Notes: a model not told the origin generated them from the sequence alone. A stretch of DNA of 15,947 nucleotides from Archangium sp. (GCA_031367385.1 JANLPS010000467.1:1-15947); one strand, 5' to 3'; counted from the first letter of the stretch, positions 2,608 through 15,946 are shown. A program made the numbers and translations.

Positions 2608-3378
2608 TTAGAACCCGCGAATTCGCTTCAGCGCCTCGTACGCTTGCTGAACCTGACGAAAGCGCTCCGCCGCCGCGGGAGTGGCCACCCGGTCGGGGTG
2701 ATTCTCTGCGGCGAGCCGTCGGTACGCGCTGCGAACCTCGTCATCGGTCGCGGTCGCAGGCACGCCCAGGGTGACGTAGTGCTCGGCGCCGGTGCCGAGA
2801 AATTGCTGGGCGATCTCCCTGCGCTGTTGTTCGTTGAGCTCGAAAGCGTCGACGATTCGCTTGAGTGCGTTGGTCTCTGAGTTGGTGAGCGGGCCGTCGA
2901 CCAGCGCGAGCTCGTACATCCACCGCGCGACCTGCTGCCGCTTCGAAGCATCGGTCTGTTGTCGCGCCGGGGGGATGACCAGGTCGAGGTCGCGGGGCGC
3001 GTGCCGCAGCTGGGCCTTGAGCGCGACCCGCACGGCCTCAATCGCCGTCGAGTCGAGCTTGCTGTGCTGTTCGAAGAACTCACGAATGACGCGTACTTCG
3101 AGGCGCGAGACCATGCCGTCGATGCGCGCGAGCTCGATGAAGAGCGGGCACATCGCGTCGATCAACGCGTGCGGCACGGCGACCACGGGCGACGGGGCAG
3201 GGCGCTGCTGCCTCGGCCAATCGGCCAGGGCCACTCGGGGCTGCTCGGGGTCTTGGTCGAGCAAGAAGTGACCCGCGGCGGCGCCGAGCAACGCCAGGGT
3301 CACCGCCAACGGCGCAGACCAGGCCAGGAGCATGCCGAGGGAGCCCCCAACCATCGCTCCGATGATCTTGCCGTACAT
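2608..3378 (-). CDS. djlA: DjlA-like membrane-anchored co-chaperone (TM anchor + TerB-like domain + C-terminal J domain)
   Basis: N-terminus MYGKIIGAMVGG plus a hydrophobic segment; TerB-like LARIDGMVSRLE and LALVDGPLTNSE; J domain YVTLGV...VRSAYRRLAAENHPD...FRQVQQAYE. ATG 3378 was chosen because the track's start at 3408 would overlap the folD start. Confidence 0.8.
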   Translation of the reverse strand: MYGKIIGAMVGGSLGMLLAWSAPLAVTLALLGAAAGHFLLDQDPEQPRVALADWPRQQRPAPSPVVAVPHALIDAMCPLFIELARIDGMVSRLEVRVIREFFEQHSKLDSTAIEAVRVALKAQLRHAPRDLDLVIPPARQQTDASKRQQVARWMYELALVDGPLTNSETNALKRIVDAFELNEQQRREIAQQFLGTGAEHYVTLGVPATATDDEVRSAYRRLAAENHPDRVATPAAAERFRQVQQAYEALKRIRGF

Positions 3379-3406
3379 GGCTCGATCGCCTACCACAGCA
3401 GGTTTC

Positions 3407-4258
3407 ATGGCTCAGTTGATTGATGGAAAAGTGCTCGCCGCCAAGGTTCGCGAAGAGCTCAAGGGTGATACCGCCGAGATCGTTCGCCGCTATGGCCGCG
3501 CGCCTGGCATCGCCGTGGTTCGGGTGGGCGAAGACCCGGCTTCGAAGGTCTACGTCACCTCGAAAGAGAAGACCGCGCTCGACCTGGGGTTCGGCTCGTG
3601 GCACCACCACTTCGAGACCAGCATCACCGAGCAGGAGCTCTTGGCGGTCGTGAAGAGGCTCAACGCCGACCCGATGGTCGACGGCATTCTGGTGCAGCTG
3701 CCCCTGCCGAAGCACATCAACAGCACGCTGGTGCTCGAGAGCATCGACCCCGCCAAAGACGTCGACGGCTTTCACGCGATCAACGCGGGCCACCTGTTTC
3801 AGGGCCGGCCCGGGCTGGTGCCATGCACTCCGGCGGGCGTGATGCGCATGCTCCAAGACATTGCCTACGACGTGACCGGCAAGAACTGCGTCGTCATCGG
3901 CCGGAGCACGATCGTCGGTCGCCCGATGTCGATGCTGCTGCTCAACGCCAGCGCCACCGTGACCATCTGCCACTTGAAGAGCGACGTGGCCGCCGAAGTG
4001 AAGCGCGCCGACGTGGTGATCGCCGCCGTCGGGGTCGCCAAGCTCGTCAAAGGCGAGTGGGTCAAACCCGGCGCGATCGTCATCGACGTCGGCATGAACC
4101 GCACGCCCGAGGGCAAGCTCTGCGGCGATGTCGACTTCGAATCGGCCAAAGAACGCGCCGCCTACATCACTCCCGTTCCCGGTGGCGTGGGCCCGATGAC
4201 CATCGCGATGTTGATGAGCAACACGGTCAAGGCCGCGAAAGCGCGTCTCTCCAAGTGA
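3407..4258 (+). CDS. folD: Bifunctional methylenetetrahydrofolate dehydrogenase/cyclohydrolase
   Basis: MAQLIDGK, VGEDPASKVYV..K, DGILVQLPLP, PAKDVDGFH, PCTPAG, VIGRSTIVGRP, NASATVTICH, IDVGMN, ITPVPGGVGPMTIAML. True start is ATG 3407, not 3332. Confidence 0.97.
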   Translation: MAQLIDGKVLAAKVREELKGDTAEIVRRYGRAPGIAVVRVGEDPASKVYVTSKEKTALDLGFGSWHHHFETSITEQELLAVVKRLNADPMVDGILVQLPLPKHINSTLVLESIDPAKDVDGFHAINAGHLFQGRPGLVPCTPAGVMRMLQDIAYDVTGKNCVVIGRSTIVGRPMSMLLLNASATVTICHLKSDVAAEVKRADVVIAAVGVAKLVKGEWVKPGAIVIDVGMNRTPEGKLCGDVDFESAKERAAYITPVPGGVGPMTIAMLMSNTVKAAKARLSK

Positions 4259-4267
4259 AGTGATGTC

Positions 4268-4293
4268 TGCCTTGATGGAGACAAACCAAGGCA
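4268..4293 (+). terminator. Stem-loop downstream of folD (possible weak terminator)
   Basis: TGCCTTG (4268-4274) pairs with CAAGGCA (4287-4293) around a 12-nt loop, starting 9 nt after the folD stop. There is no immediate U-tract. Confidence 0.3.
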
Positions 4294-4320
4294 AATAGCG
4301 CACATAGTTCGATTTTCTCT

Positions 4321-4372
4321 TTGTATTTACGCGTTATTCCCGAATAGTATCAAAAACGGGGCAATACTACTC
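4321..4372 (+). promoter_or_regulatory. Candidate sigma70-type promoter with overlapping inverted repeat, upstream of the SulP-gamma-CA operon
   Basis: AT-rich island with TTGTAT (4321-4326), 18 bp, TAGTAT (4345-4350). Inverted repeat GAaTAGTAT-N13-ATACTAcTC (4342-4372). Confidence 0.45.
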
Positions 4373-4384
4373 AGTCGCCTCCCA

Positions 4385-6445
4385 ATGGCGATCGTTCGAG
4401 AAAAAGAAGCCCCCTCCGGAGTGATGAAGTCGCTTCGCGCTGACTGGCGCGCCATGGCGGGGGCGTTCTTGAGCGAGTGGGGAGACGTCTTTCGCAGCCG
4501 GGCGCTGCCCTCTGACGTGCTGGCAGGGCTGACGGTCGCGGCGGTTGCGTTGCCCTTGAACCTGGCGTTGGCGGTGGCGAGCGGAGTGCCTCCGGCGGCC
4601 GGGTTGGTGGCGGGGGCCGTCGGCGGGCTCATCGCCGCGTCATTCGGTGGCGCCTCGTTGCAGGTGACTGGCCCGGCGGCGGCGTTGTCGGTGATGGTCT
4701 TGGCGGTCGCTGAGCGTTTCGGCGTGGTGGGCGTCGCCGCGGCGGCGCTGATGGTCGGGGTGATTCAGCTGGTCATGGCGTTCACCCGCGCCGGTCACCT
4801 CGCCAAGTTCGTGCCCGAGAGCGTGCTGGCGGGCTTCACCACCGGCGTGGGCCTGAAGCTCTTCGACTCGCAGCTGCCGGAGCTGCTCGGCTTCGACTAC
4901 CGGGTCTCCGAGCTCGCCGCGATGATGCATCGGCCCGAGTGGCTGCACGAAGTGAAGTGGACCTCGGTCGTCTGCGGGCTCACGGTTGCCTTTCTGGTGG
5001 TCTCGATGAAGAACCACAAGCGCTTCCCCGCGGCGATCGTGGGCATCGCGGTGGTGACCTTCATCGCGAGCTACGTGAACTGGGACGTGACTCGCGTCGG
5101 TGAGGTGCCGTCGTCCTTTCCGACTCCGGCGCTGCCGTTGCTCAAAGACAACCAGTGGCTCGATCTGTTCTTGCTGGCGTTGCCGTTGGGGCTGCTCGCC
5201 GGGGTCGAATCGCTGCTTTCGGCCAGCGTGGTCGATCGCATGACCGCGGGCACTGGGCGCAAACCGGTTCAGCCCTCGCTCGAGCTGTTCGGGCAAGGCC
5301 TGGCGAACATCGCGGTCGGTATGATGTCGGGCCTGCCGGTGTCAGGCGTGGTGGTTCGCAGCAGCACCAATGTTCAGACCGGCGCGAAGACGCGGCTGTC
5401 GAGCATTCTGCACGCGGTGTTTCTGGGCTGTGCGGTGCTCTTCGCGAGCGCCACGCTCTCGCGGGTGCCGTTGGCTGCGCTGGCGGGCTTGCTGTGCGTG
5501 ATCGGCTTTCGGCTGATCGAGCTCAAGACCTTCATCGAGCTGCTCAACCATCACAAGGTCGAGGCACTCGCCTTCGCGGTGACGTGCGTTGGCACGCTCA
5601 CCGGGCACCTGATGGCGGGGCTGGTGGCCGGCCTGGTGATCTCCGGAGTCGGGCGTTGGCTCGAGGGCATGCTGAACCCGGCGCGCAAGGTTCAGCCCGA
5701 ACGAAAACCCGGCATTCGCGCGGTGATGGCCAAGGCCGACGCGACCGCCCGCCACCCTGAGCACGCTCCCCAGTCGGCGCCCTCGAAGGCGCAGTGGTTG
5801 CCGAACGTGCGAGGCCGCGCGGTGCTGCCGAAGAGCGCTTTCATTCACCCCCAGGCCACGGTGATCGGCCGGGTGGTGTTCGGTGAGAACGTGCACATCG
5901 CCGCGGGAGCATCAGTGCGCGCTGACGAGGGCGCTCCGTTCTTCATCGGAGACGACTCGAACATTCAAGACGGCGTGGTGATTCATGCGCTGCAACAGAA
6001 GTGGGTGCAGGTCGGCGGCGAAGACTGGGCGGTGTACGTGGGCCGAAAGGTCTCGATGGCCCACAACGCGCTCGTGCACGGGCCCTGCTTCATTGGTGAC
6101 GGCTCGTTCATCGGGTTCAAAGCGGTGGTGCACGACTCGGTCGTCGGCAAGGGCTGCTTCGTCGGCATCGGCGCGGTCGTGGTCGGCGTCGAGATACCTG
6201 ACGGGCGCTTCGTGCCGAACGGCAGCATCGTCGACTCGCAAGACAAGGTCGACGCGTTGCCGCTCGCGCAAGAGTCGCAGATGCACTTCAACGAAGACGT
6301 GGTCGACGTGAACCGCGGGCTCGCTGCGGCGTATCGGTCAACCACGGCGGTCAATGAGGCCCTGGCCCGGCCCGCACGACCCGAGAAGGTCTCGGTGTGG
6401 TCGCAGGGTTGGGCGCGGGTCGCGGCCAAAAATCAGCGTTTTTAA
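4385..6445 (+). CDS. SulP/SLC26 anion (probably bicarbonate) transporter fused to C-terminal gamma-class carbonic anhydrase (CcmM/Cam-like)
   Basis: SulP signatures DVLAGLTVAAVALPL..A.ASGVPP..GL...GG...FGG...QVTGP, VPESVLAGFTTGVG, VESLLSA and ELFGQGLANI..GLPVSGVVVRSSTNVQTGAKTRLSSILH. After a roughly 55-aa linker there is a left-handed beta-helix with VRADEG, SNIQDGVVIHAL, MAHNALVHGP and VVDVNRGL. Start codon is uncertain (no clear SD). Confidence 0.9.
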   Translation: MAIVREKEAPSGVMKSLRADWRAMAGAFLSEWGDVFRSRALPSDVLAGLTVAAVALPLNLALAVASGVPPAAGLVAGAVGGLIAASFGGASLQVTGPAAALSVMVLAVAERFGVVGVAAAALMVGVIQLVMAFTRAGHLAKFVPESVLAGFTTGVGLKLFDSQLPELLGFDYRVSELAAMMHRPEWLHEVKWTSVVCGLTVAFLVVSMKNHKRFPAAIVGIAVVTFIASYVNWDVTRVGEVPSSFPTPALPLLKDNQWLDLFLLALPLGLLAGVESLLSASVVDRMTAGTGRKPVQPSLELFGQGLANIAVGMMSGLPVSGVVVRSSTNVQTGAKTRLSSILHAVFLGCAVLFASATLSRVPLAALAGLLCVIGFRLIELKTFIELLNHHKVEALAFAVTCVGTLTGHLMAGLVAGLVISGVGRWLEGMLNPARKVQPERKPGIRAVMAKADATARHPEHAPQSAPSKAQWLPNVRGRAVLPKSAFIHPQATVIGRVVFGENVHIAAGASVRADEGAPFFIGDDSNIQDGVVIHALQQKWVQVGGEDWAVYVGRKVSMAHNALVHGPCFIGDGSFIGFKAVVHDSVVGKGCFVGIGAVVVGVEIPDGRFVPNGSIVDSQDKVDALPLAQESQMHFNEDVVDVNRGLAAAYRSTTAVNEALARPARPEKVSVWSQGWARVAAKNQRF

Positions 6446-6460
6446 GAAAGAGGTGGCTTG

Positions 6461-7345
6461 ATGATGTTCGCACTTGGTCTTGCAGTCGGCGTGGTCGCAG
6501 CGGCCCTGTGGTTCGGGCGAAGCTGTCAGTTTCGGGTCGACGAGGGCCAGTGTGCCGTCGTCACCTCGTTCGGGGCGGCGAAGCGAAACCCAGCTGGGGG
6601 TCTGGTGACGTTCGGGCCTGGCATTCACGCGAAGTGGCCGTGGCAGATCGTTCACCGGGTGTCGCTGCGTGAGCAGTCGCTCGAGCTGTCGGGCGAAAAT
6701 GGCCAGCGGGTGATGGCCGCCGACGGCACGGTGCTGCGCCTCGAGGCCTCGCTGCGCTACACCCCGGAGATCGCTGGGCTCGAGCGGTTTCTCTTCGGGC
6801 TCAAGCGCCATGAAGAGCACATCAATGGGTTGTTCACCTGTCTGCTGCGAAGCGAAATCGCCAACATGGCGAAGCCCGCGGCGACGGAGATCATGACTCC
6901 GCACGCGGAGATGGCTGAGGCAGCAGGCTCGTACGGTCTGATTCGCCGCGAACGGAACCTGCTCAATCAACGCCTGGCTGACGTCTCGCAGAAGCGGCTC
7001 GGAGAAGTCTACGGCGTGAAGTTCTCAGCCGTCGACCTGCTCGACATTCTGCCGCCTGATGAGTTGGCCGATGCGCTGAACGCGGTGATGAACGCGCGCT
7101 CCGAGGCTGATTCACAGCGCTTCAAGGCCGAGAGCGAGAGCCGGCAGCAATTGTTGGCCGCGGAGCAGGGTGTCGACATCGCCCGCACCCATGCGTCTGC
7201 CGTTCAAATCGAGATGGACACGTTGGCCACGCACCTGTCGTCGCTCGACAAAGATGGAGTGCTCTCGCTCTACGTCGATCGCCGTCAGAACGAAGTGCTC
7301 GCCGAGTCGCGCACGCTGTACGTGAATGAAGGAGGCAAGCGATGA
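6461..7345 (+). CDS. SPFH (band 7/prohibitin) domain membrane protein, HflK-like
   Basis: SD AGAGGT at 6449-6454 before ATG 6461; N-terminal TM helix; FRVDEGQCAVVTSFG...PGIHAKWPW, TVLRLEASLRY, YGVKFSAVDLLDILPP; C-terminal coiled coil ALNAVMNARSEAD...AESE. Confidence 0.85.
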   Translation: MMFALGLAVGVVAAALWFGRSCQFRVDEGQCAVVTSFGAAKRNPAGGLVTFGPGIHAKWPWQIVHRVSLREQSLELSGENGQRVMAADGTVLRLEASLRYTPEIAGLERFLFGLKRHEEHINGLFTCLLRSEIANMAKPAATEIMTPHAEMAEAAGSYGLIRRERNLLNQRLADVSQKRLGEVYGVKFSAVDLLDILPPDELADALNAVMNARSEADSQRFKAESESRQQLLAAEQGVDIARTHASAVQIEMDTLATHLSSLDKDGVLSLYVDRRQNEVLAESRTLYVNEGGKR

Positions 7346-8229
7346 TCACCGAGCTCTTGTTTGGCGGGTTGACCGCATTGGGCGTGATTGGCCTCGCCGT
7401 GTTGGTGTTTCGGGCGATCACCGTGGCCGTCGAAGATGAAGAGACGGTGCTGGTGACCCGCTTCGGCAAGCTGGTGGCCCAGCTGCGAAAGCCCGGGCTG
7501 CACGTGCTGGCCGATAAGGTGCTGCCGTGGGTGACGGTGCATCGCGTGTCGCTGGCGCGTGATTTTCGCGAGCTGAAGAACGTGCACGTCAACGATGCAC
7601 GAGGCACGACCGTGGTCGTCGACGTGTGGATAGAGCTGCGAGTGGTCGACCCGGTGAAGGCCCTCTTCGCCGTCGAGCATTGGGATACGGCGACGCAAAA
7701 CCTGTTGATTCACGCGGCGACCGCGGCGCTCTCGAGCAAAGATTTTTCGCACATCTTGCGAGACAGCTCAGAGCTCACGGCGACGCTCGAGCGAGAGCTG
7801 TCGATTGAGACGGCGCGCTGGGGCGTGAAGGTCGAGCAAGTGTTCTTGCGCGATGTGAGCTTGTTGCCCGAGGTCTCACGGCAGCTCTTTGGAGCGGTCG
7901 CGGCGAGGCTCGATCGGGCCCGCGCGGTGATCGAAGAGCTGGGCAGGTTAGACGTGGCGCGGCTCGAGGCCGATACGGCGCAGCGGGTCGCCGCGTTGGT
8001 GGCCGAGGCGAAGTCGCAGTACCCGTTGGCGGTGGGGCGCGCGTTCAACTCGATGAAGCGCAACCCGCGGGTGCTCGACGCGTACACGACGTTGTTCGGG
8101 TTGGCCCAGCTTCGGCCGCATCGCACGGTGGCTTTTCGCGGGTTTCACAACGGCGAGATGCGCAGCGCCGACGCCGCGATGCTCGCCCCAGAGCTGCTGC
8201 ACGGCTCCGAAGTCGTGACGCCGAGGTGA
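7342..8229 (+). CDS. SPFH (band 7/prohibitin) domain membrane protein, HflC-like
   Basis: SD GGAGG at 7331-7335 and ATGA overlap with the upstream stop; N-terminal TM helix; VEDEETVLVTRFGKLV...PGLH, DARGTTVVVDVWIELRVVDPVKALFAV, RWGVKVEQVFLRDVSLLPEV; Ala/Glu-rich coiled coil. Confidence 0.87.
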   Translation: MITELLFGGLTALGVIGLAVLVFRAITVAVEDEETVLVTRFGKLVAQLRKPGLHVLADKVLPWVTVHRVSLARDFRELKNVHVNDARGTTVVVDVWIELRVVDPVKALFAVEHWDTATQNLLIHAATAALSSKDFSHILRDSSELTATLERELSIETARWGVKVEQVFLRDVSLLPEVSRQLFGAVAARLDRARAVIEELGRLDVARLEADTAQRVAALVAEAKSQYPLAVGRAFNSMKRNPRVLDAYTTLFGLAQLRPHRTVAFRGFHNGEMRSADAAMLAPELLHGSEVVTPR

Positions 8230-8261: not shown

Positions 8262-9146
8262 TCAGGTTCTGGCCCGGAGCGCGCTCACAATCATTCGCGA
8301 GGCTGGGCTGCGGTTGAGCGTGTAAAAATGAATGCCCGGCACGCCTCGGTTGAGCAGCTCGAGGCACTGCACCGTCGCGTGGGCCACGCCGAGTTGCGTC
8401 ACCGCATCAGGCCGATCGCGAACCTTCTCGAGCTCCAACTGCAGCCGCATCGGCACCGTCGCGCCGCACATGCGGGTAAATCTTTGAATCTGGTCGTAGT
8501 TCGTGATCGGCATGATGCCTGGCACGATCGGCACGTTGATGCCGATTCGCCGCGCGCGCTCGACGAAATCGAAGAAGAACGCATTGTCGAAGAACAGCTG
8601 GGTGACGATGAAGTCGCAGCCTTGGTCGACCTTGATCTTCAAGTTGCGCAGATCGATTTCACGCGACGCAGTCTCGACGTGGCCTTCGGGGCACGCCGCT
8701 CCGCCGACTGAGAAGCCGAGATCTCTGCTCTGAATGAACTCGACCAGCTGGCTGGCGTACTGAAAGCCCCCGGCGTGTTGGGTGAACTGCTCTTGCCCCT
8801 TCGGAGGGTCACCCCGCAAGGCGAGCACGTTCTCGATGCGCCCCTTCGCGAGTCGGTCGAGCACGTCGCTGATCTCCGCGGCGGTGTGGCCGACGCAGGT
8901 CAGATGCGCCATCGGCTCGATGCCAGTGCGTTCTTTGATGTGCGTCACGAGCTCGATCGTTTTCTCGCGGGTGCTGCCGCCGGCGCCGTACGTCACGCTG
9001 ACGAACCCCGGCTCCAAGGAGCGCAGATCTTCGAGCGCAGCCCAGAGCTGCTTCTCGCCATCAGGCGTCTTGGGCGGAAAAAACTCGAAAGAGAAACACG
9101 GTTTCGAGGGGTTGAGCACGTTGCGAATCTTCACGATGCCATTCAT
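8262..9146 (-). CDS. metF: 5,10-methylenetetrahydrofolate reductase
   Basis: FSFEFFPPKT, FVSVTYGAGGST, PMAHLTCVG, NVLALRGDPP, PEGH, TQLFFDN, IVPGIMPI, GIHFYTLN. Start may be GTG 9134 (MKIRNVLN). Confidence 0.97.
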   Translation of the reverse strand: MNGIVKIRNVLNPSKPCFSFEFFPPKTPDGEKQLWAALEDLRSLEPGFVSVTYGAGGSTREKTIELVTHIKERTGIEPMAHLTCVGHTAAEISDVLDRLAKGRIENVLALRGDPPKGQEQFTQHAGGFQYASQLVEFIQSRDLGFSVGGAACPEGHVETASREIDLRNLKIKVDQGCDFIVTQLFFDNAFFFDFVERARRIGINVPIVPGIMPITNYDQIQRFTRMCGATVPMRLQLELEKVRDRPDAVTQLGVAHATVQCLELLNRGVPGIHFYTLNRSPASRMIVSALRART

Positions 9147-9153
9147 GCCTCGG

Positions 9154-9212
9154 TTGATTGTGCGAAACCAGTCTGTAGAGTGCGCGCGGTTTCGCGCATA
9201 AGAGGTTTCGCA
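9154..9212. promoter_or_regulatory. Divergent metF/gcvT control region with three copies of GGTTTCGC (one inverted)
   Basis: GCGAAACC at 9162-9169; GGTTTCGC at 9188-9195 and 9204-9211; candidate TTGATT (9154)-N16-TAGAGT (9176); SD-like AGAGG at 9201-9205. Confidence 0.4.
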
Positions 9213-10291
9213 TGCCTAGACAGACTCCCCTGAACGCCATTCACCGCAAGCTCGGCGCCCGAATGGTCGACTTCGCCGGGTGGGACATGCCGGTGCAGTA
9301 CGCCGGCCTCGAAAAAGAGCACGTGTCGGTGCGCACCGACGTGGGCCTCTTCGACGTCAGCCACATGGGCGAAATCGAATTTCGCGGCAAGGGCGCGCTC
9401 GAAGAGGCGAACCGGCTGATCACCAACGACCTCACCAAAGCTGCCGACGGTCAGGCCATCTACGCTGGGCTGCTCAACGAGAAAGGCGGCTTCGTCGATG
9501 ACGTGGTCGCCTACCGCTTCTCGCCCGAGCACATCTTCATCTGCGTCAACGCCTCGAACCGCCAGAAAGACTTCGAGTGGATGAGGTCGCAGGCCAAGAC
9601 CGTGAAGCCGGTCGACGTCTCCGATGACTTCGCGCAGATCGCCGTTCAAGGCCCCAAGGCGTTCGGCTTGGTTCAGCGGCTGAGCAAAGCGAACCTCGAC
9701 GGCATCGGCACCTACCGCTTCACCCAAGGCGCCATCGCCTCGGTCGAGTGCATCGTCTCGCGCACCGGCTACACCGGCGAAGATGGCTTCGAGCTCTACT
9801 GCGCGCCGGGGCAGGCCGAAAAATTGTGGCTCGCGTTGCTCGACGAGGGCAAGGCCGATGGTTGCGTGCCCGCGGGCCTGGGTTGCCGCGACTCGCTGCG
9901 CACCGAGATGAAGTTCGCGCTCTACGGCAACGACATCGACGACGCGCACACGCCGCTCGAGGCCGCCCTAGGGTGGATCGTGAAGCTCGACAAGCCCGAC
10001 TTCATCGGCAAATCGGTGTTGGTGGCGCAGAAGGCCGCTGGCGTGCCGAGAAAACTGGTCGGGTTCGAGCTGACCGAGCCTGGCATCCCCCGGCCGCACA
10101 TGGCGATTACCAGCAACGGCGAGAAGGTCGGCGAGGTCACCTCAGGCACGATGGGCCCCAGCATCAAGAAGGCCGTCGGCATCGGCTACGTGCCCACCGC
10201 ACTCTCGACCGAAGGCTCGGTTTTTCAAGTCGAAATGCGTGGCCGGCAGGTCGGCGCCCGCGTAGTGAAAACCCCTTTCTACAAACGCTGA
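9212..10291 (+). CDS. gcvT: Glycine cleavage system aminomethyltransferase T
   Basis: TPL..IH..LGARMVDFAGWDMPVQY, GLFDVSHMGEI, IAVQGPKA, SRTGYTGEDGFELY, GLGCRDSLRTEM..LYGND, VGEVTSGT..PS, VVKTPF. Confidence 0.97.
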   Translation: MPRQTPLNAIHRKLGARMVDFAGWDMPVQYAGLEKEHVSVRTDVGLFDVSHMGEIEFRGKGALEEANRLITNDLTKAADGQAIYAGLLNEKGGFVDDVVAYRFSPEHIFICVNASNRQKDFEWMRSQAKTVKPVDVSDDFAQIAVQGPKAFGLVQRLSKANLDGIGTYRFTQGAIASVECIVSRTGYTGEDGFELYCAPGQAEKLWLALLDEGKADGCVPAGLGCRDSLRTEMKFALYGNDIDDAHTPLEAALGWIVKLDKPDFIGKSVLVAQKAAGVPRKLVGFELTEPGIPRPHMAITSNGEKVGEVTSGTMGPSIKKAVGIGYVPTALSTEGSVFQVEMRGRQVGARVVKTPFYKR

Positions 10292-10313
10292 ACGAAGCAG
10301 GAGCGCTCACATC

Positions 10314-10700
10314 ATGGCCGCCGAATATCCCTCCAATTTGAAGTACACCAAAGACCACGAGTGGGCGCGCAAGTCGGGCACCGCCGTGCAAGTCGGAGTC
10401 ACCTGGCACGCCCAAGACGCGATCGGCGCCGTGGCCTACGTCGAGCTGCCCAAGGTCGGCACCACCGTCACCGCCGGCGGCACCTTCGGCGTCATCGAGT
10501 CGACCAAGGCGACCTCCGATCTCTTCGCGCCGGTGGCCGGCAAGATCACCAAGGTGAACGACGCGCTCAGCTCGAACCCCGGGTTGGTCAATGAAGACCC
10601 GTACCAGGCGGGCTGGCTGGTCGAGATCGAGCCGTCATCTGCGGGTGAATTCGACGCGCTGCTCGACTCGGCGACCTACACCAAGCTGTTGGGCGCCTAA
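10314..10700 (+). CDS. gcvH: Glycine cleavage system H protein (lipoyl carrier)
   Basis: PSNLKYTKDHEW, IESTKATSDLFAPVAG (lipoyl-Lys), VNEDPYQAGWL; SD AGGAG upstream. Confidence 0.96.
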   Translation: MAAEYPSNLKYTKDHEWARKSGTAVQVGVTWHAQDAIGAVAYVELPKVGTTVTAGGTFGVIESTKATSDLFAPVAGKITKVNDALSSNPGLVNEDPYQAGWLVEIEPSSAGEFDALLDSATYTKLLGA

Positions 10701-11884
10701 GGTTCTTGGGGGCGCAGCACGAGGGTGGGGGTGGCGCTTCGGCCCGCGACCATGCCGGTGCCCAGCTGACCGAACTCATTGAGGCCGGTGCAGAGCACGT
10801 TGCCGTCTTTGATCGCGCAGGCGTGAAAGCGGCCGGTCGCGAGCAATGAGTAGCCGGTGCCCACCGTCTGGGGGGCTGCCTCTTCGGCGGTGTAGGTACC
10901 CAGCCCGAGTTGCCCCTCGTAGTTGCGGCCCCAGTTCGTCCACGTGTTGTTGGTGCGCAGACCGCCCTGCGTGAACGTGTTGAGCGAGACGCTGACCCAA
11001 TCGCGGGTGACGCCGACCTCGGTCGGCACCGGTAACGCCGCCCCGGGGATGACGCTGCCCCAGCACCACAGGGCGCCATTGGTCTTGCGCGCGCACGAGT
11101 GATCTTGGGCACAGGCCATGTCGACCCAATCGGTGTCGGTGCCGACGCGGGTGAGGTGGCGCTCTTGAGCCGGGGTGCCCAAGCCGAGGCCCAGCTCGCT
11201 CGAGGTGTTGCGACCCCAGCAGAAGAGGGCGCCATCGGCCCGGAGGCCGCAGGTGTTGCCCTGGCCGGTCGCGATCTGCCGCCAGTCGCCCAGCTTGACG
11301 ACCCGGGGCGAGGCTTGATCAGCGCTGTCAGCCGCATCTTCGAGGCCGACCTGGCCCTCGAGGTTGTTGCCCCAGCACATCGCGCTCGCATCAGCCAAGA
11401 CCGCACACGCCGTGGTGAACCGAAAATCGAAGCTCGTCACCGCTTGGGGCAGCGGCACTTTTTGCGGCAGGTGCGTGGAGACCTTCGTGCCGTTGCCGAG
11501 CTGGCCGTTGGCGTTGATGCCCCAGCACCAGAGGGTGCTGTCAGTTTTGAGCGCACACGTCGCGCCATCAGCGGCGATCACTTTCTTCCAATTGGTGGCG
11601 GTGCCGACCCAGGTTGGGAGCACGGGGGTCGTCGAAGCCAATTGGCCGGCCTCTCCGTCGTCGTTCTTGCCCCAGCAGGCGATGCGGCCGCGAACGATGG
11701 CGCACGAGTGGTAGCTGCCCGCGCTCAAGTCGTCGACGAACGCGAGCACCCCGCCATCATCTTCTGGGGTGCCGGCATCGGAGCTGCTGCCCGCGTCGAT
11801 CGGCGCGAGGGTGAACACCTCGAGTGGCACGATGCAGCCGCTCAACACCGAGAGCGCGAGGGTCGCGATGAGCGTTCTCACCAT
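10697..11884 (-). CDS. RCC1/BLIP-II-like seven-bladed beta-propeller lipoprotein
   Basis: True start ATG 11884: MVRTLIATLALSVLSG|C (lipobox LSGC), then a DAG-rich linker and seven repeats of the type AG..HxCA...G.xxCWG.N..GQLG. Its stop overlaps the gcvH stop. The track's upstream extension to 12376 is an off-frame reading of the upstream gene. Confidence 0.88.
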   Translation of the reverse strand: MVRTLIATLALSVLSGCIVPLEVFTLAPIDAGSSSDAGTPEDDGGVLAFVDDLSAGSYHSCAIVRGRIACWGKNDDGEAGQLASTTPVLPTWVGTATNWKKVIAADGATCALKTDSTLWCWGINANGQLGNGTKVSTHLPQKVPLPQAVTSFDFRFTTACAVLADASAMCWGNNLEGQVGLEDAADSADQASPRVVKLGDWRQIATGQGNTCGLRADGALFCWGRNTSSELGLGLGTPAQERHLTRVGTDTDWVDMACAQDHSCARKTNGALWCWGSVIPGAALPVPTEVGVTRDWVSVSLNTFTQGGLRTNNTWTNWGRNYEGQLGLGTYTAEEAAPQTVGTGYSLLATGRFHACAIKDGNVLCTGLNEFGQLGTGMVAGRSATPTLVLRPQEP

Positions 11885-12831
11885 CGGGCCCCCACGCCCA
11901 GCTCGGCGAGCCCTGCGACGCCCCGGTAGGCGGTGCTCTCGGTGCCCGACACGCGAACCGATACGCCGCGCGCCACCCCGCCGATGCCCAGCCGAAACGA
12001 GGCCACGAAGTTGCCCTTGGTGACCCACAAGGTCGAGACGGCGAAGGCCGAGATCACCAGCGCCGAGGCGGTCTGCCCGACCACTTCGCTGGTTGCCGCC
12101 ACACCGTTGAGCGTGAGCCAGCGCAGGTCGAGCAGGGCTCCCAAGTCGAGCGAGAGGGCGCGGCCGGCGATGACCACGGCGCCGAGCATCAAGTTGCCGC
12201 CGGGAGCGAAGCCGTTGAAGACCCCGACTCCGACGTTCTTGGTTGGGGCCCAGCTCACCGCCGCGGCGAGCTCGATGACGAAGCGGTCGATGGCCCTGCG
12301 GGCGCTCAGGTCGGCCCCGAAGAGCGAAACGCCGCCACCGCTGAGCAGGCCGTGGCCTCGCACCGAGAGCGTCCACGGGCGGTCGGGTTCGGGCGGCTCG
12401 GGTGGCCTCAGCACGGGTATCACCTCTCGCGCCTCGCGGAGCAGCTCACTCGCACTCACACCTACAGCGAACGCCCATTGACCGACGGGCAAGGGTTCGA
12501 GGTCGAGCTTGCGTTGAACGCTGCGGCGCGCCGATGCGTCGCCGGCGCTGACCTCCATCTCGACCACGGTGTTCGAGTCGAACCGCATCACGATCTGCGC
12601 GTCAGCCGGCTGTGCGGGGCGCGCCTCGCACAGCCCTGAGACTTCGATTTCGGTGGTCAGCTCGCGGTGTACGCCACTGGCCCAGGAGCCGCCCCAGCCG
12701 GGGCCCTCGAAGCTCAGCGAAACCGTGGCGCGGCCAGGCGCACAATTCTGGGCCCAGGCGCTCGACGCCGCGAGGCACGACAACACCGACACCACCCATG
12801 CGCCCCAACGGCACGAAGACGACGACTTCAG
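11878..12831 (-). CDS. Secreted hypothetical protein, probable outer-membrane beta-barrel with an N-terminal periplasmic domain
   Basis: Signal-peptide-like VVSVLSCLAASSAWA|Q; N-terminal domain with two Cys; Pro-rich linker VLRPPEPPEPDRPW; alternating amphipathic Gly-rich beta-strands ending in LAELGVGARW (C-terminal aromatic). Start uncertain (CTG 12831, GTG 12795 or TTG 12852). Confidence 0.6.
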   Translation of the reverse strand: MKSSSSCRWGAWVVSVLSCLAASSAWAQNCAPGRATVSLSFEGPGWGGSWASGVHRELTTEIEVSGLCEARPAQPADAQIVMRFDSNTVVEMEVSAGDASARRSVQRKLDLEPLPVGQWAFAVGVSASELLREAREVIPVLRPPEPPEPDRPWTLSVRGHGLLSGGGVSLFGADLSARRAIDRFVIELAAAVSWAPTKNVGVGVFNGFAPGGNLMLGAVVIAGRALSLDLGALLDLRWLTLNGVAATSEVVGQTASALVISAFAVSTLWVTKGNFVASFRLGIGGVARGVSVRVSGTESTAYRGVAGLAELGVGARW

Positions 12832-13979
12832 GGAGTGACGGCAGGCGGGCAAAGCAGCTCGACGGTGGGGCGGTGGATGCCGCTCGGGAAGCGCTGAAGA
12901 TACTCACTTCGGGCCTCTTCACACGCCGAGATTCGCTTGGTCACCTGATAGGCGCGAACGAGGCGGGCTGCCACGTCTTCGCGCAGGGGGGCCGAGGGCA
13001 GCTTGGTCTGGGCCAAAACCAGGGGCGCAATCGCACCTTCGACGTCGTTCAGCTGGTCCATTCGCAGGCGGCCGAGCTCGAAGGCGGCGAGGCCTTCTTG
13101 GGCGCTGTTGGGGTGCTTGGCCAACAGCTCGCTGAGCATGGTCGCGGCCTTGGCGTAGTGCCCCAGCCGGCGCTCTTCTCGCACTTCGTCGAACAATTGG
13201 TCGGCGGTGGGCGCGGCCTTCGCGTCTTCATCGGGAGCGGCCTGAACCGCGCCCTTCGAGGGTGCCCCGCCGCCGCGAGTGGTGGAGCGGTGCGTCGATT
13301 GGTGCCGTTTCGGCGGCTTGGCGACATCGCTCGGCGCCGGGTCTTGATTCTCGCTCACGTCGCGCTCGTTCTCAGGCTCGACCGCGTCGAGGGGAGCGGC
13401 CTGCACCACCACCGGGCCGGCCGAGTCACCCGAGCCGACCCCGCTGGTATACTTCTGGCTGGCGGTGAGGTTCATCACGAACTGGCCGTGCTCGCGCACT
13501 TCGACGACGCCCTCGGTGACACTCACGATGGCCGACTCGCCGACGCGCTCGACGGCGAACTGGGTGCCGTGCACGCGAACCTCGGTGGTGCCAGCGACGA
13601 CGCGAAAGCTGCGAGCGGGGTTGTGCGACACCTTGAAGCTCGCCCGGCCATTGACCAGCTGAATCACCACGTCTGCAGGGGCGATGGCGACGAGCTGCGC
13701 CTGGCTCTTCGGGTCGAGGGTGAAGGTGCTGCCATCGGTGCCGAGTGCGACGGTGACTTCGGTGCTGGCGGTCTTGACGGTGGTGCCGGGGGCGAGGGTG
13801 TGGGTGCTGCGTGACCAGACGGCGACGCCGGTGCCGGCGACGATCAAGATCGCGGCGGCCGCGGCGAGGCGGGTCGGCCAGCGCGAGCGGCTCGGGAGCT
13901 CTTCGAACAGGCGCGAGACGAACGCGTCTTCGTTGACCTCGGGAGTGACGATGTACGATTTGAGGCTGTTGTCACCCAT
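12828..13979 (-). CDS. FecR-domain anti-sigma-like membrane protein with C-terminal TPR-like domain
   Basis: GGAG SD then ATG 13979, overlapping the sigma stop; TM LAAAAAILIVAGTGVAVW; FecR motif L.NGRASFKV.....FRV.AG...VRV.GT.F.V......VSV.EG.VEV; low-complexity linker; TPR-like helices (AATMLSELLAKHPNS...AAFELGRL...YLQRFPSG). Confidence 0.85.
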   Translation of the reverse strand: MGDNSLKSYIVTPEVNEDAFVSRLFEELPSRSRWPTRLAAAAAILIVAGTGVAVWSRSTHTLAPGTTVKTASTEVTVALGTDGSTFTLDPKSQAQLVAIAPADVVIQLVNGRASFKVSHNPARSFRVVAGTTEVRVHGTQFAVERVGESAIVSVTEGVVEVREHGQFVMNLTASQKYTSGVGSGDSAGPVVVQAAPLDAVEPENERDVSENQDPAPSDVAKPPKRHQSTHRSTTRGGGAPSKGAVQAAPDEDAKAAPTADQLFDEVREERRLGHYAKAATMLSELLAKHPNSAQEGLAAFELGRLRMDQLNDVEGAIAPLVLAQTKLPSAPLREDVAARLVRAYQVTKRISACEEARSEYLQRFPSGIHRPTVELLCPPAVTP

Positions 13980-14568
13980 GTGAAACTCCAATCAACTTGC
14001 GGTTCGCGGCCACCAAGCGCCGCTTCACCGTCGCGACCGAGACATCCATTCGTTCGGCGATCTCTTCGAGCTCGAGGCCTTCGACTCTTTGCAGCAGCAC
14101 CGCGACGCGTTCTTCAGGGTCGAGTGCTCCGACCGCCCGGTACAAATCGATGATGCCGTCTCGAATCTGCGGAGACGCGTCAGTCGAAATCGCGAGGTTC
14201 ATCTCTTCTTCTTTCGCCGGAGCGAGCCCCAGCCTTCTGCGCACATTCACCCGCCGGAGCCGCGAGCGAACCTCGGCAACGACGATGCTCGACAACCAGC
14301 CCGAGAAAGCCGCTGGCGCTTTGAGCGAAGGCAGCGCGGTCAGCATTCGAACGAACGCGTCGTGCGCGATGTCTTCGCTGTCTTGCTCCGGCGCCAATCG
14401 ATGCGCGAGACCGACCACTCGCGACAAATGGCGTTTGACCAACGCTGCTCTGGCCTGAAACTCCCCCGCTTGGGCGCGTGTCACCAACGCGACTTCGTCT
14501 TCGTCTACGCCCGGCGGCTTGCCCGACCCTGGCCTCCGAAACGGGAGGACTTGACCTGACCCGCCCAT
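13972..14568 (-). CDS. ECF-subfamily RNA polymerase sigma factor
   Basis: Region 2 LVTRAQAG...DSEDIAHDAFVR.....AFSGWLSSI; region 4 LDPEERVAVLLQRVEGLELEEIAERMDVSVATVKRRL; N-terminal QVLPFRRP. Confidence 0.92.
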   Translation of the reverse strand: MGGSGQVLPFRRPGSGKPPGVDEDEVALVTRAQAGEFQARAALVKRHLSRVVGLAHRLAPEQDSEDIAHDAFVRMLTALPSLKAPAAFSGWLSSIVVAEVRSRLRRVNVRRRLGLAPAKEEEMNLAISTDASPQIRDGIIDLYRAVGALDPEERVAVLLQRVEGLELEEIAERMDVSVATVKRRLVAANRKLIGVSHG

Positions 14569-14730
14569 TTAAGAATTCGCCGCCTTCATGGTTGTGAGAA
14601 TCGCGAGACCACGAACGAAGCTCAAGCACTCTCGCGGGGTTGCGAGTGTGTCAGAGCCGCACATGCCGTGTTTCGGCAAGGTGTTGAATTTAGTGCACAG
14701 GGGTGGGGCGTTGTGGCGCCGCTGCGTGTA

Positions 14731-14753
14731 GCCCGAGCGGAATCGGCTCAGGC
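14731..14753 (-). terminator. Stem-loop just downstream of the depolymerase stop
   Basis: On the minus strand, GCCUGAGC-7 nt loop-GCUCGGGC forms an 8-bp stem with one U-G pair, 11 nt after TAA. No U-tract follows. Confidence 0.3.
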
Positions 14754-14764
14754 CACCGGGTTTT

Positions 14765-15946
14765 TTACTGGCAGCGACCGGGCTCGAAATAGCCGGCGCG
14801 GGGTTCACGAACCCACGTCGAAACGGCCAACGACCACAACCCGATGTCTGCATTCGACCCGACCGCGCACGCGTGCCCGTTGTACGGGTTGCAGAGCCCG
14901 GCCCGGTGCGCCTGGGTGTGGGCGTAGTTGGTCGCGTAGATCTCCGAGCAGCTCCCGGCGTCTTTCTGGCCCGCGTCGGTTGGCCCGGCGTCTTTGGGGC
15001 CGGCATCAGGCACACCTGAATCGGTCGGCCCGGCATCTTTGGGGCCCGCATCAGGCACGCCCGAGTCGGTCGGGCCCGCGTCTTTGGTGCCCGCGTCGGT
15101 CCCCGCGTCTTTCGTGCCGGCGTCGGTGCCGGCGTCTTTGGTGCCCGCGTCGGTGCCGGCATCTTTGACGCCGCCATCGCTGCCGCCGCCGGTCAGACCG
15201 AAGAACTTCGCCGCGTACCCCGACGAGCAGAGCTTCACGTCGAGCAGATACGAGCCCGCCTGGCCGCACCCATTCGAGGGGTCGACCGCACTGCCGTGGT
15301 TCATGCCCGCCACCTTCCACTGCTCGACCAGCACGGTGCCATTCGAGTCGGCATACCGCTTCACCGTGGCCGCGCCGATGCTCTCGGTCGAGGTGGGCGA
15401 ATCGCTCAGGCCGTGAACATTCGTCCACTGCGTGACGCTCTCATCGGCGTTGACCGGCGCGACGATCGAGTCGCTGGCGCCATGCCAGATGGCGATGCGG
15501 GGCCACTTGCTGGTCCCGGAGGCTCCGGCGTTGCGAACCAAGTCACCCCACGCGGCGGCCGACTTGCTCTGCGCAGCGCTCATGCAGTTGAGGCCGCAGT
15601 TGTACGGAATACAGGCCATCACCGCGCCTGCCGAGAACACGTCGGGGTAGGCCGCGAGCGCCGCTTCAGCCATCGCTCCACCAGCCGACAGGCCGGTCAC
15701 GAACGCCTTGCTGACCGGGTACTTCGACTTCACGTAGTCGACCATCTGCTTCACTGAGAGCACCTGGCCGCCGTCTCGCCGAATGTCGCCGGCATTGAAC
15801 CACCCGAAGCACGACGCGCTCGCGGTAGTCTGCGGGTAGACGACGATGAAGCCGAGCTGGTCGGCGAGGGTGTTCCAGCCGGCTCCGACGTAGCTGTTGG
15901 CACTCATCGCGCAGCCGTGCATCGCGACCACCACCGCCACGTCGCC
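14765..15946 (-). CDS. phaZ: Extracellular short-chain-length PHB depolymerase family esterase (N-terminus beyond window edge)
   Basis: Oxyanion motif VVAMHGC, FIVVYPQ, CFGWF, lipase box VTGLSAGG, WHGASDSIV (Asp), GMNHG (His); DAG repeat linker; C-terminal PHB-binding-like domain C.E..ATNYAH..A.RA...AVGSN..IGL.......E...GYF..G.C. The frame stays open to the window end. Confidence 0.85.
   Translation of the reverse strand, partial: GDVAVVVAMHGCAMSANSYVGAGWNTLADQLGFIVVYPQTTASASCFGWFNAGDIRRDGGQVLSVKQMVDYVKSKYPVSKAFVTGLSAGGAMAEAALAAYPDVFSAGAVMACIPYNCGLNCMSAAQSKSAAAWGDLVRNAGASGTSKWPRIAIWHGASDSIVAPVNADESVTQWTNVHGLSDSPTSTESIGAATVKRYADSNGTVLVEQWKVAGMNHGSAVDPSNGCGQAGSYLLDVKLCSSGYAAKFFGLTGGGSDGGVKDAGTDAGTKDAGTDAGTKDAGTDAGTKDAGPTDSGVPDAGPKDAGPTDSGVPDAGPKDAGPTDAGQKDAGSCSEIYATNYAHTQAHRAGLCNPYNGHACAVGSNADIGLWSLAVSTWVREPRAGYFEPGRCQ
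14951..15166 (-). repeat. Intragenic tandem repeats encoding the DAG linker
   Basis: Three 27-bp units (KDAGTDAGT; 15086-15166), two 45-bp units (KDAGPTDSGVPDAGP; 14996-15085), then degenerate KDAGPTDAGQ and KDAGS (14951-14995). Confidence 0.9.

Follow-up and report, generated by a model that had tools for sequence, protein, structure and literature searches.

A transporter-carbonic anhydrase fusion followed by two SPFH genes

We analyzed a 15,947-nucleotide stretch of Archangium sp. DNA (GCA_031367385.1 JANLPS010000467.1:1-15947; the whole of it is the window below), in which positions 4385-8229 carry three plus-strand open reading frames (ORFs): a SulP/SLC26 transporter fused to a gamma-class carbonic anhydrase (CA), followed by two SPFH proteins that we call S1 and S2. 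The fusion gene (4385-6445, 686 residues) has a transporter core of what we term type I and no STAS domain. It encodes a SulP transmembrane (TM) domain (residues 42-400, 4508-5584; Pfam PF00916), a CA domain that profile and structure matches place with Cam and CcmM (residues about 478-655, 5816-6349), and a disordered C-terminal tail with a W-x3-W...RF end that is a candidate docking motif (6353-6442). The fusion stop codon lies 15 nucleotides ahead of the S1 ATG at 6461, and this spacer (6446-6460) contains a Shine-Dalgarno-like GAGGTG at 6450-6455 and an in-frame TTG at 6458. S1 (6461-7345, 294 residues) and S2 (7342-8229, 295 residues) both match PF01145 and are predicted to face the cytoplasm, S1 from one N-terminal TM helix; they overlap by ATGA, with GGAGG upstream, and this -4 overlap was kept in 68 of 83 loci. 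From the spacing we infer that the three genes are co-transcribed.

The fusion is preceded by a 126-nucleotide intergenic region after folD (4259-4384, plus strand) that is AT-rich, with 44% G+C against 65% for the window, and holds a 7-bp inverted repeat at 4268-4293 without a T-run. No sigma-70-like site was found in this region and no terminator was called in it after folD, so that a putative promoter of the cassette's own is plausible and not firm. No promoter motif was shared by six aligned upstream regions. A first-pass annotation of this DNA had described three same-strand genes with a 15-bp gap, a Shine-Dalgarno sequence and an ATGA overlap, which the ORF coordinates and spacing bear out, and had put them behind their own AT-rich promoter region, of which the AT-richness stands and the promoter is left without a recognizable sigma-70-like site. 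It had also recorded that no ftsH, hflX or nfeD partner lies in the window, which is the case; two FtsH-type (Peptidase_M41) genes are present in the host assembly, on other contigs.

The fusion protein

The transporter part of gene 1 matched Sulfate_transp (PF00916) with an E-value of 6e-65 and 220 bits against a cut-off of 23, and the protein gave no Pfam match to STAS or to Pro_CA, the beta-class CA family. In an AlphaFold2 (AF2) model (mean predicted local distance difference test, pLDDT, of 82) the membrane part has the 14-TM inverted-repeat transport domain of SulP/SLC26 proteins, and a linker of 45 residues joins it directly to a beta-helix. Foldseek matched the membrane part to SULTR4;1, BicA and SLC26Dg and the remainder to Cam/CcmM; TM-scores, normalized by target, were 0.86-0.88 against the membrane domains of BicA and SLC26Dg. 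The protein start, MAI.R, is common to homologues. Together with the hexapeptide repeats described below, these matches confirm the SulP-gamma-CA fusion proposed in the first-pass annotation.

Glu275 in TM8 and Arg325 in TM10 were invariant in all 124 aligned fusions, a pattern of H+-coupled SLC26 proteins, whereas BicA carries Asp and Gly in these columns. The TM8 Glu of SULTR4;1 is reported to mediate H+ coupling and the Asp of BicA to serve Na+ (PMC8298490). BicA was the top sequence match of the core among solved structures (E-value 2e-34), but the core failed the BicA equivalog test (157 versus 880 bits), and its best NCBIfam match, below cut-off, was DauA. The fusion transporter is thus likely to be an H+-coupled carrier; bicarbonate is its presumed substrate, judging by the CA fusion alone. 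Beyond these fusions, many of the proteins closest to the type I core are SulP-STAS-beta-CA fusions, and one is a SulP-STAS-gamma-CA protein, which argues that this SulP lineage has been paired with CAs repeatedly. Two single proteins may be recorded here: an 846-residue SulP-STAS-gamma-CA protein without an RF tail (P0260), a possible intermediate or a separate fusion, and a type I core joined to a degenerate CA domain that lacks the RADEG motif (P0245).

The C-terminal domain consists of hexapeptide repeats (Pfam), its best matches being CcmM (E-value 2.5e-49) and Cam (3e-46), with YrdA/PaaY-type proteins far behind (1e-6 to 1e-15). It shares about 42-45% identity and the same fold with Cam and CcmM (root-mean-square deviation 1.3-2.8 A), a left-handed beta-helix with Zn histidines and catalytic residues. 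The Zn ligands H534, H560 and H565 were invariant in 124 of 124 aligned fusions, as were R512, D514, E515, N526, Q528, D529 and N643, which correspond to Cam R59, D61, E62, N73, Q75, D76 and N202 in what we take to be the Cam numbering, anchored on the Cam/CcmM alignments. Since catalytic and transport-site residues are invariant alike, an active CA on an H+-coupled carrier is likely.

After the last helix, the tail is variable and disordered (pLDDT below 50 over residues 657-686), and in the AF2 monomer model it is not docked on the transporter. Its end is well kept: the last residue was F in 117 of 120 homologues, the last two were RF in 112, and a Trp lay within the final 25 residues in 105. 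The tail Arg is written by five codons, and RF or KF was found in 57 of 58 loci with a gap of at least 8 nucleotides to the next gene; a motif kept through five codons and whatever the gap points to selection on the protein sequence. For the same reasons we rejected the idea that the RF end is a by-product of the ribosome site of the next gene. A divergent subgroup (L146-L149) ends in KPF or KPL instead of RF, matching its divergent S1 and S2, and may serve as a natural specificity control. Frameshifts in the fusion or an SPFH gene were seen at L067/L086, L034, L041 and L143, Cystobacter fuscus NCWS included, and could be sequencing errors or decay.

S1 and S2 belong to a separate SPFH family

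S1 and S2 matched Band_7 (PF01145) above cut-off, with E-values of 3e-21 and 2e-17, and have the TM anchor, SPFH1/2 domains and coiled coil of the SPFH superfamily. They did not reach the HflK/HflC equivalog scores, S1 gaining 30 bits against 134 for HflC and S2 41 against 159 for HflK. In a quick tree with three named references only, all on long branches, S1 grouped with sister A (Shimodaira-Hasegawa-like approximate likelihood ratio test 98) and S2 with sister B (97), to the exclusion of E. coli HflK, HflC and QmcA. In the AF2 model of S2 (pLDDT 91), one TM helix is joined by a coiled-coil helix of 64 residues (176-239). Its closest solved relatives by sequence were stomatin and QmcA, with a match to the QmcA-YbbJ structure 8Z5G at an E-value of 5e-8; its top fold matches were stomatin and the HflK/C entry 7VHQ, and the QmcA fold was matched too. 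A search of the ESM Atlas returned Band_7 clusters only.

The distribution of charges around the TM helix bears on the side of the membrane. None of the 79 S1 homologues has a Lys or Arg before the helix, and 78 have more after it; S2 has a mean of 0.2 before it, with more after it in 58 of 76 proteins and never more before. QmcA has a charge pattern like that of S1 and S2, while HflK and HflC carry two such residues before the helix. The SPFH domains of S1 and S2 are accordingly predicted to be cytoplasmic, on the same side as the CA, as in QmcA and stomatin.

The sister pair is about 25% identical to S1/S2, widespread and free-standing (L089-L093; L121-L131), and we found no specific name for it. 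At 17 of its loci there was no SulP or gamma-CA neighbor and no neighbor shared beyond close kin. The host carries one copy (G000:C470:13269-15280), and queries of its genome with E. coli HflK and HflC gave no close match (best E-value 2e-4), nor did a query with E. coli YbbJ give any. Beside the cassette itself, nfeD is absent, no fourth gene is conserved among the loci, and neither hflX nor ftsH is among the recurring neighbors. By these comparisons S1 and S2 are not HflK/C but a heteromeric family of their own, its sister pair being free-standing. The label HflK/HflC-like in the first-pass annotation is therefore inaccurate in detail, on account of the scores, the predicted membrane side and the separate family; its proposal also depended on the pair not branching within canonical HflK/C, and the tree does set S1/S2 apart from the E. 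coli proteins.

A search for covariation between the proteins in 89 triads (effective number 52) gave noise, with the top pairs in gappy ends, and the S1/S2 columns that change along with the tail show lineage-wide changes only. A divergently oriented flotillin-like gene (about 598 residues, labeled from its sequence) lies just upstream of the cassette in one related group, at L013, L017, L018, L038, L049, L064 and L077.

The SPFH pair stays with the fusion

We examined the linkage of the three genes in several genome samples. Among 161 GTDB relatives, the best 80 were used for reading downstream: wherever the downstream DNA reached 2.1 kb or more, in 68 loci, S1 and then S2 followed without exception, and the 12 shorter loci, all at contig ends, showed both genes (3), S1 (5) or the contig edge (4). 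Across 401 Myxococcota genomes, the CA domain was found in 35 and a strong S2 match in 38, with all 35 shared and 33 of them on one contig. Of the three with S2 and no CA, one (G379) is a contig that begins within S1, and the other two (G065 and G308) carry only a partial S2 remnant, that of G065 in gene surroundings which match those of an intact locus; four further genomes matched via the sister pair only. The 381 genomes of the class of Labilithrix gave 34 places with a fused CA in 33 genomes, two stand-alone CA matches of 46% identity having been set aside. Every one of the 33 S2 places fell within these fusion genomes, 32 of them on the contig of the fusion; the G842 locus is split, and that of G1009 breaks off within S2. 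In 351 Bdellovibrionota genomes, searched in the direction from S2 to the fusion only, S2 was found in seven, comprising five triads, one contig start and one deletion remnant, and the sister pair in 14 others. No intact S1-S2 pair without the fusion was found among these 1,133 genome slots, save two contigs starting inside S1 or S2. Gene order and coupling are the same in Myxococcota and in Bdellovibrionota, in AT-rich genomes too, at S-protein identities down to 34-40%. At most 12 of 101 loci share any one flanking family, so the unit comprises just these three genes. The first-pass annotation's expectation that the SPFH genes would be conserved next to fusion homologues is borne out.

Less complete loci were also seen. 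At L115 (G535:C24) a deletion has left a 5' stump of the fusion gene that now runs into a complete S2, and the same-strand LysR gene (Pfam LysR) directly upstream is one that we take to be NhaR-like. At L082 (G308:C1:8066000-8078000) the S2 remnant lies two genes from an opposite-strand pair of SulP-STAS and beta-CA genes, a single case of possible triad replacement. A metagenome scan with one protein gave one locus with S1 and S2 and no upstream DNA, and plasmid searches gave distant SPFH and SulP matches only.

The transporter core proved more variable than the genes that follow it. The Bdellovibrionota locus L120 has a different SulP ahead of the same CA, and a search with this protein showed the CA motif in 94 of 120 proteins among the matches listed, Methylogaea oryzae and Methylococcales included. 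Between type I and these type II proteins, identity per 20-residue window is 12-51% in the membrane domains and 51-82% in the CA domains. The RF end is present in 62 of 86 full-length type II proteins, S1 and S2 are kept in 6 of 6 readable type II loci, and four S2 proteins from type II loci cluster as one clade within those of type I (support 96). In a CA tree the two types interleave with six changes, of which well-supported branches force only one; several type II origins are suggested, and one origin is also compatible. Stand-alone STAS-less SulPs resemble type II cores as closely as these cores resemble one another (some of the apparent stand-alone proteins are fragments), and the type II core appears to derive from such a family (P0502-P0523). 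The transporter core can evidently be exchanged, whereas the CA, the tail and the SPFH pair remain associated. The stand-alone proteins P0481 and P0502-P0523, about 450-490 residues long, have the PF00916 domain alone listed; P0481 is the frameshifted fusion of L143.

Host carbon genes and genomic setting

A beta-CA is present in 34 of 34 triad carriers tested and in 25 of 26 non-carriers. The triad as a replacement of the housekeeping beta-CA was rejected on these counts. The Archangium host (assembly of 7.97 Mb, 98% complete, closest named relatives Myxococcaceae) itself holds a Can-type beta-CA (G000:C23:15906-16556) and a DabA-type CO2 pump subunit (G000:C444:15138-17456); a link of DabA to the triad was rejected (2/5 versus 3/5). 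This one genome gave no match to Rubisco, and so nothing that would speak for a carboxysome, and none to a reaction centre. A partial second copy of the fusion, from the end of the SulP part to mid-CA, lies between insertion-sequence-like fragments (G000:C475:1263-1934).

In the window the cassette is flanked by the housekeeping one-carbon genes folD, metF, gcvT and gcvH (3332-4258, 8262-9146 and 9212-10700). This context is common only to the window and its closest relative, so the position among one-carbon genes is probably an insertion site. Further downstream (10697-15940, minus strand), reading from the sequence alone suggests an ECF (extracytoplasmic function)-type sigma factor, a FecR-like anti-sigma factor, an outer-membrane-like protein, an RCC1-repeat lipoprotein and a polyhydroxybutyrate-depolymerase-like esterase with DAG repeats.

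A same-strand leader-like ORF lies upstream of the cassette at 16 of 83 other loci, compared with 3 of 552 random anchors, as counted with a pattern that was written post hoc, after examples had been seen, and that misses others seen; the window has none. These ORFs begin with a hydrophobic segment (signal or TM), continue with an acidic stretch and carry an RPP-like or PP...RLxL motif at the C-terminus, and in the 11 scanned no Pfam family scored above cut-off. They resemble stalling leaders of the CutF/CruR/RAPP type as these are reported (PMC9973294, PMC9426467, PMC10951233), and we regard them as candidate ribosome-stalling leaders of the cassette. Such candidate leader ORFs were recorded at L016, L021, L026, L029, L033, L035, L043, L052, L054, L057 (5560-5856), L085 (5343-5648), L088 (9761-10048), L118 (9308-9748), L136-L141, L146, L149 and L152.

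A model for the cassette and its alternatives

We propose, giving it slightly better than even weight, that S1 and S2 form a dome around transporter dimers which CA trimers cross-link, the whole acting as an accessory CO2/bicarbonate/H+ unit. S1 and S2 would alternate in one SPFH oligomer, as in other SPFH pairs, and build a cytoplasm-facing ring or dome that encloses one dedicated client, the SulP-CA fusion. The SulP part would move bicarbonate with protons, and a likely active gamma-CA would sit at its inner mouth, where CO2, bicarbonate and H+ could equilibrate. Gamma-CA active sites are reported to be shared between the chains of a trimer (PMC8000050); because its active site lies between subunits, the CA must trimerize. 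SLC26 membrane domains would dimerize through TM14, as SLC26Dg reportedly does even without STAS, a domain that is described as stabilizing the TM13-14 dimer center and aiding transport (10.1101/518209). Tying a 2-fold transporter to a 3-fold enzyme would create a cross-linked hexamer or patch, and the S1/S2 ring may cap and stabilize this assembly in place of the lost STAS domain. Since it is the part outside the membrane that remains with the SPFH pair while the transporter core changes, the docking site would be the linker, the CA and the RF tail; we infer that S1/S2 dock there and enclose the fusion. Precedents come from stomatin, whose domes in red cells are reported to enclose AQP1 and UT-B (PMC13041759) and which is reported to bind and stimulate the Cl-/HCO3- exchanger AE1 (PMC5383999). 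The unit would be an accessory pH/CO2 device rather than the basic bicarbonate supply. As to flux, a CA next to an importer would reconvert the incoming bicarbonate to CO2, and for this reason we slightly favor outward transport of respiratory CO2 in the form of bicarbonate, or a role in pH control.

A more specific version is possible, and in our view doubtful: a membrane-anchored microcompartment in which a heteromeric SPFH dome captures gamma-CA trimers via the RF tail as a targeting signal and seals them over interchangeable SulPs. If true, it would be a CO2/bicarbonate/proton reaction chamber floored by membrane, and an SPFH cage would thereby be put to metabolic use in heterotrophic predators and, it appears, in some methanotrophs too.

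Several observations weigh against the proposed dome. The presence of a beta-CA in all 34 carriers tested leaves no essential need evident. The samples overlap and their genomes are related, so that the counts given above overstate independence. The cytoplasmic topology is a charge-bias prediction made on start codons that we chose. The proton shuttle of Cam, Glu84, is not kept (K in 109, Q in 10, R in 3 and E in 2 of 124 fusions; Gln in the window protein), although CcmM 3KWC, titled an active structure, also has Gln in this column. Bicarbonate follows from the CA fusion alone, because the site lacks the Asp of BicA and differs between types I and II (T/Y95, S/C279 and V/A322). The stomatin 16-mer is described as only about 140-160 A wide (PMC13041759), and the fit of a transporter-CA hexamer in the S1/S2 ring would depend on subunit number. 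Locus L116 lacks the RF tail yet keeps S1 and S2, and the tail is altered in 10 more of 89 loci. The sister pair thrives without an adjacent client, so this SPFH family can work in trans. Finally, a 5' swap of the core carries the downstream genes along by position, so the type II linkage speaks for retention and not for contact.

Some of the same evidence can be read in other ways. S1 and S2 might be a dedicated folding or turnover factor that stabilizes the 2-fold/3-fold fusion or passes it to FtsH, the RF end being a recognition or degradation tag, with no lasting compartment. HflK/C regulate FtsH, and FloA with NfeD is reported to stabilize unfolded proteins (PMC13086221); the host lacks a close HflK/HflC match though it has two FtsH-type genes, and the tail is disordered with a hydrophobic last residue. 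We nevertheless hold this to be unlikely, as no protease or nfeD gene recurs beside the cassette and the pair, scoring below the HflK/C cut-offs, is predicted on the opposite side of the membrane. It is quite unlikely, too, that S1/S2 regulate the transporter from outside or organize a lipid patch while the RF tail acts within the fusion, as a transporter plug or a clasp of the CA trimer: the tail is not docked on the transporter in the monomer model, it persists on an unrelated core, and S2 shares its coiled coil and C-terminal elements with SPFH proteins that form domes. What speaks for such regulation is that stomatin raises AE1 activity with no enclosure shown (PMC5383999), that a C-terminal helix reportedly blocks the pathway of SLC26A9 (PMC11214054), and that S1/S2 are kept at the tail-less L116.

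The scaffold link could be real and the substrate another anion, such as sulfate, a dicarboxylate or cyanate, with the CA supplying local protons or another hydrolase activity. To this we give little credence. The sub-threshold DauA match, the E/R site that resembles SULTR4;1 and SLC26Dg rather than BicA, and the service of one CA to two cores with different sites would fit it, but the relatives of the core include SulP-STAS-beta-CA fusions and a SulP-STAS-gamma-CA, the CA belongs to the Cam/CcmM clade (E-value 1e-49) and not to the YrdA/PaaY type, and no sulfur or dicarboxylate gene recurs nearby. That the SPFH genes merely hitch-hike beside the fusion in a mobile cassette while serving some unrelated function is scarcely credible, for all the patchy distribution, the variable flanks and the lone-standing sister pair, given the conservation of order and coupling at such low S-protein identity in both Myxococcota and Bdellovibrionota, and the failure to find an intact pair without the fusion apart from two contig starts that cannot be judged. 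The dome that holds cross-linked transporters thus remains our preferred explanation, and the first-pass proposal that the SPFH pair scaffolds or encloses the transporter-CA in a membrane-localized inorganic-carbon or pH-handling unit is, as a whole, partly supported.

Comparison with known systems

The triad is a variant that combines known kinds, a SulP-CA fusion and an SPFH scaffold pair, in a combination that we did not find described. No paper uniting SPFH, carbonic anhydrase and SulP was found within the open literature, where a looser combination turned up only in an unrelated Campylobacter paper; within this scope, the first-pass remark that it knew of no described system with this architecture holds. 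The clients and purpose of most bacterial SPFH proteins are an open question, and here the genome names the client. The triad is also a hard-wired test case for the idea of a transporter-CA metabolon, with an unusual 2-fold by 3-fold assembly problem. Natural controls are at hand in the sister SPFH pair that lacks a client, in the two unrelated transporter cores and in the variants without a tail. Cultured carriers include Cystobacter fuscus and Labilithrix luteola, and fusion proteins occur also in Archangium violaceum and Methylogaea oryzae.

Felce and Saier are said to have dealt with SulP-CA fusions and pairs of the Rv3273 type in 2004. That type joins a SulP to a CA, as here, and the nearest outside relatives of the type I core include such fusions; here, however, a gamma-class and presumably trimeric CA replaces STAS, instead of a beta-CA following it, and an RF tail and two SPFH genes come after. 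SulP-beta-CA fusions and can-sulP pairs have been proposed to serve bicarbonate transport or pH control (PMC6458275, PMC11423575). BicA has the same SLC26 fold, but the fusion has a Glu/Arg site in place of its Na+-binding Asp, lacks STAS and scores far below the BicA equivalog level. With the Cam of Methanosarcina and the N-terminal gamma-CA of CcmM, the fusion CA shares fold, Zn ligands and catalytic residues; it differs in being tethered to a membrane, in lacking Rubisco-like repeats and in the replacement of Glu84, and its host has no Rubisco match.

Among SPFH systems, HflK/HflC-FtsH is alike in having two tandem SPFH genes, each with one N-terminal TM helix, and HflK/C encloses a membrane enzyme; S1 and S2 score far lower, form a separate clade, are predicted on the opposite side of the membrane and show no link to hflX or ftsH. 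A 2026 survey of Pseudomonas is reported to have found no conserved SPFH context beyond hflKC (PMC13086221). QmcA-YbbJ (PDB 8Z5G) is a bacterial, cytoplasm-facing SPFH cage with an operon partner; there one SPFH gene goes with nfeD, whereas here there are two SPFH genes and no nfeD. Stomatin, the best sequence and fold match of S2, forms a cytoplasm-facing dome on transport proteins, a bicarbonate exchanger included. It is a eukaryotic homo-16-mer with many clients, whereas the cassette described here encodes a bacterial hetero-pair tied genetically to one transporter-enzyme client.

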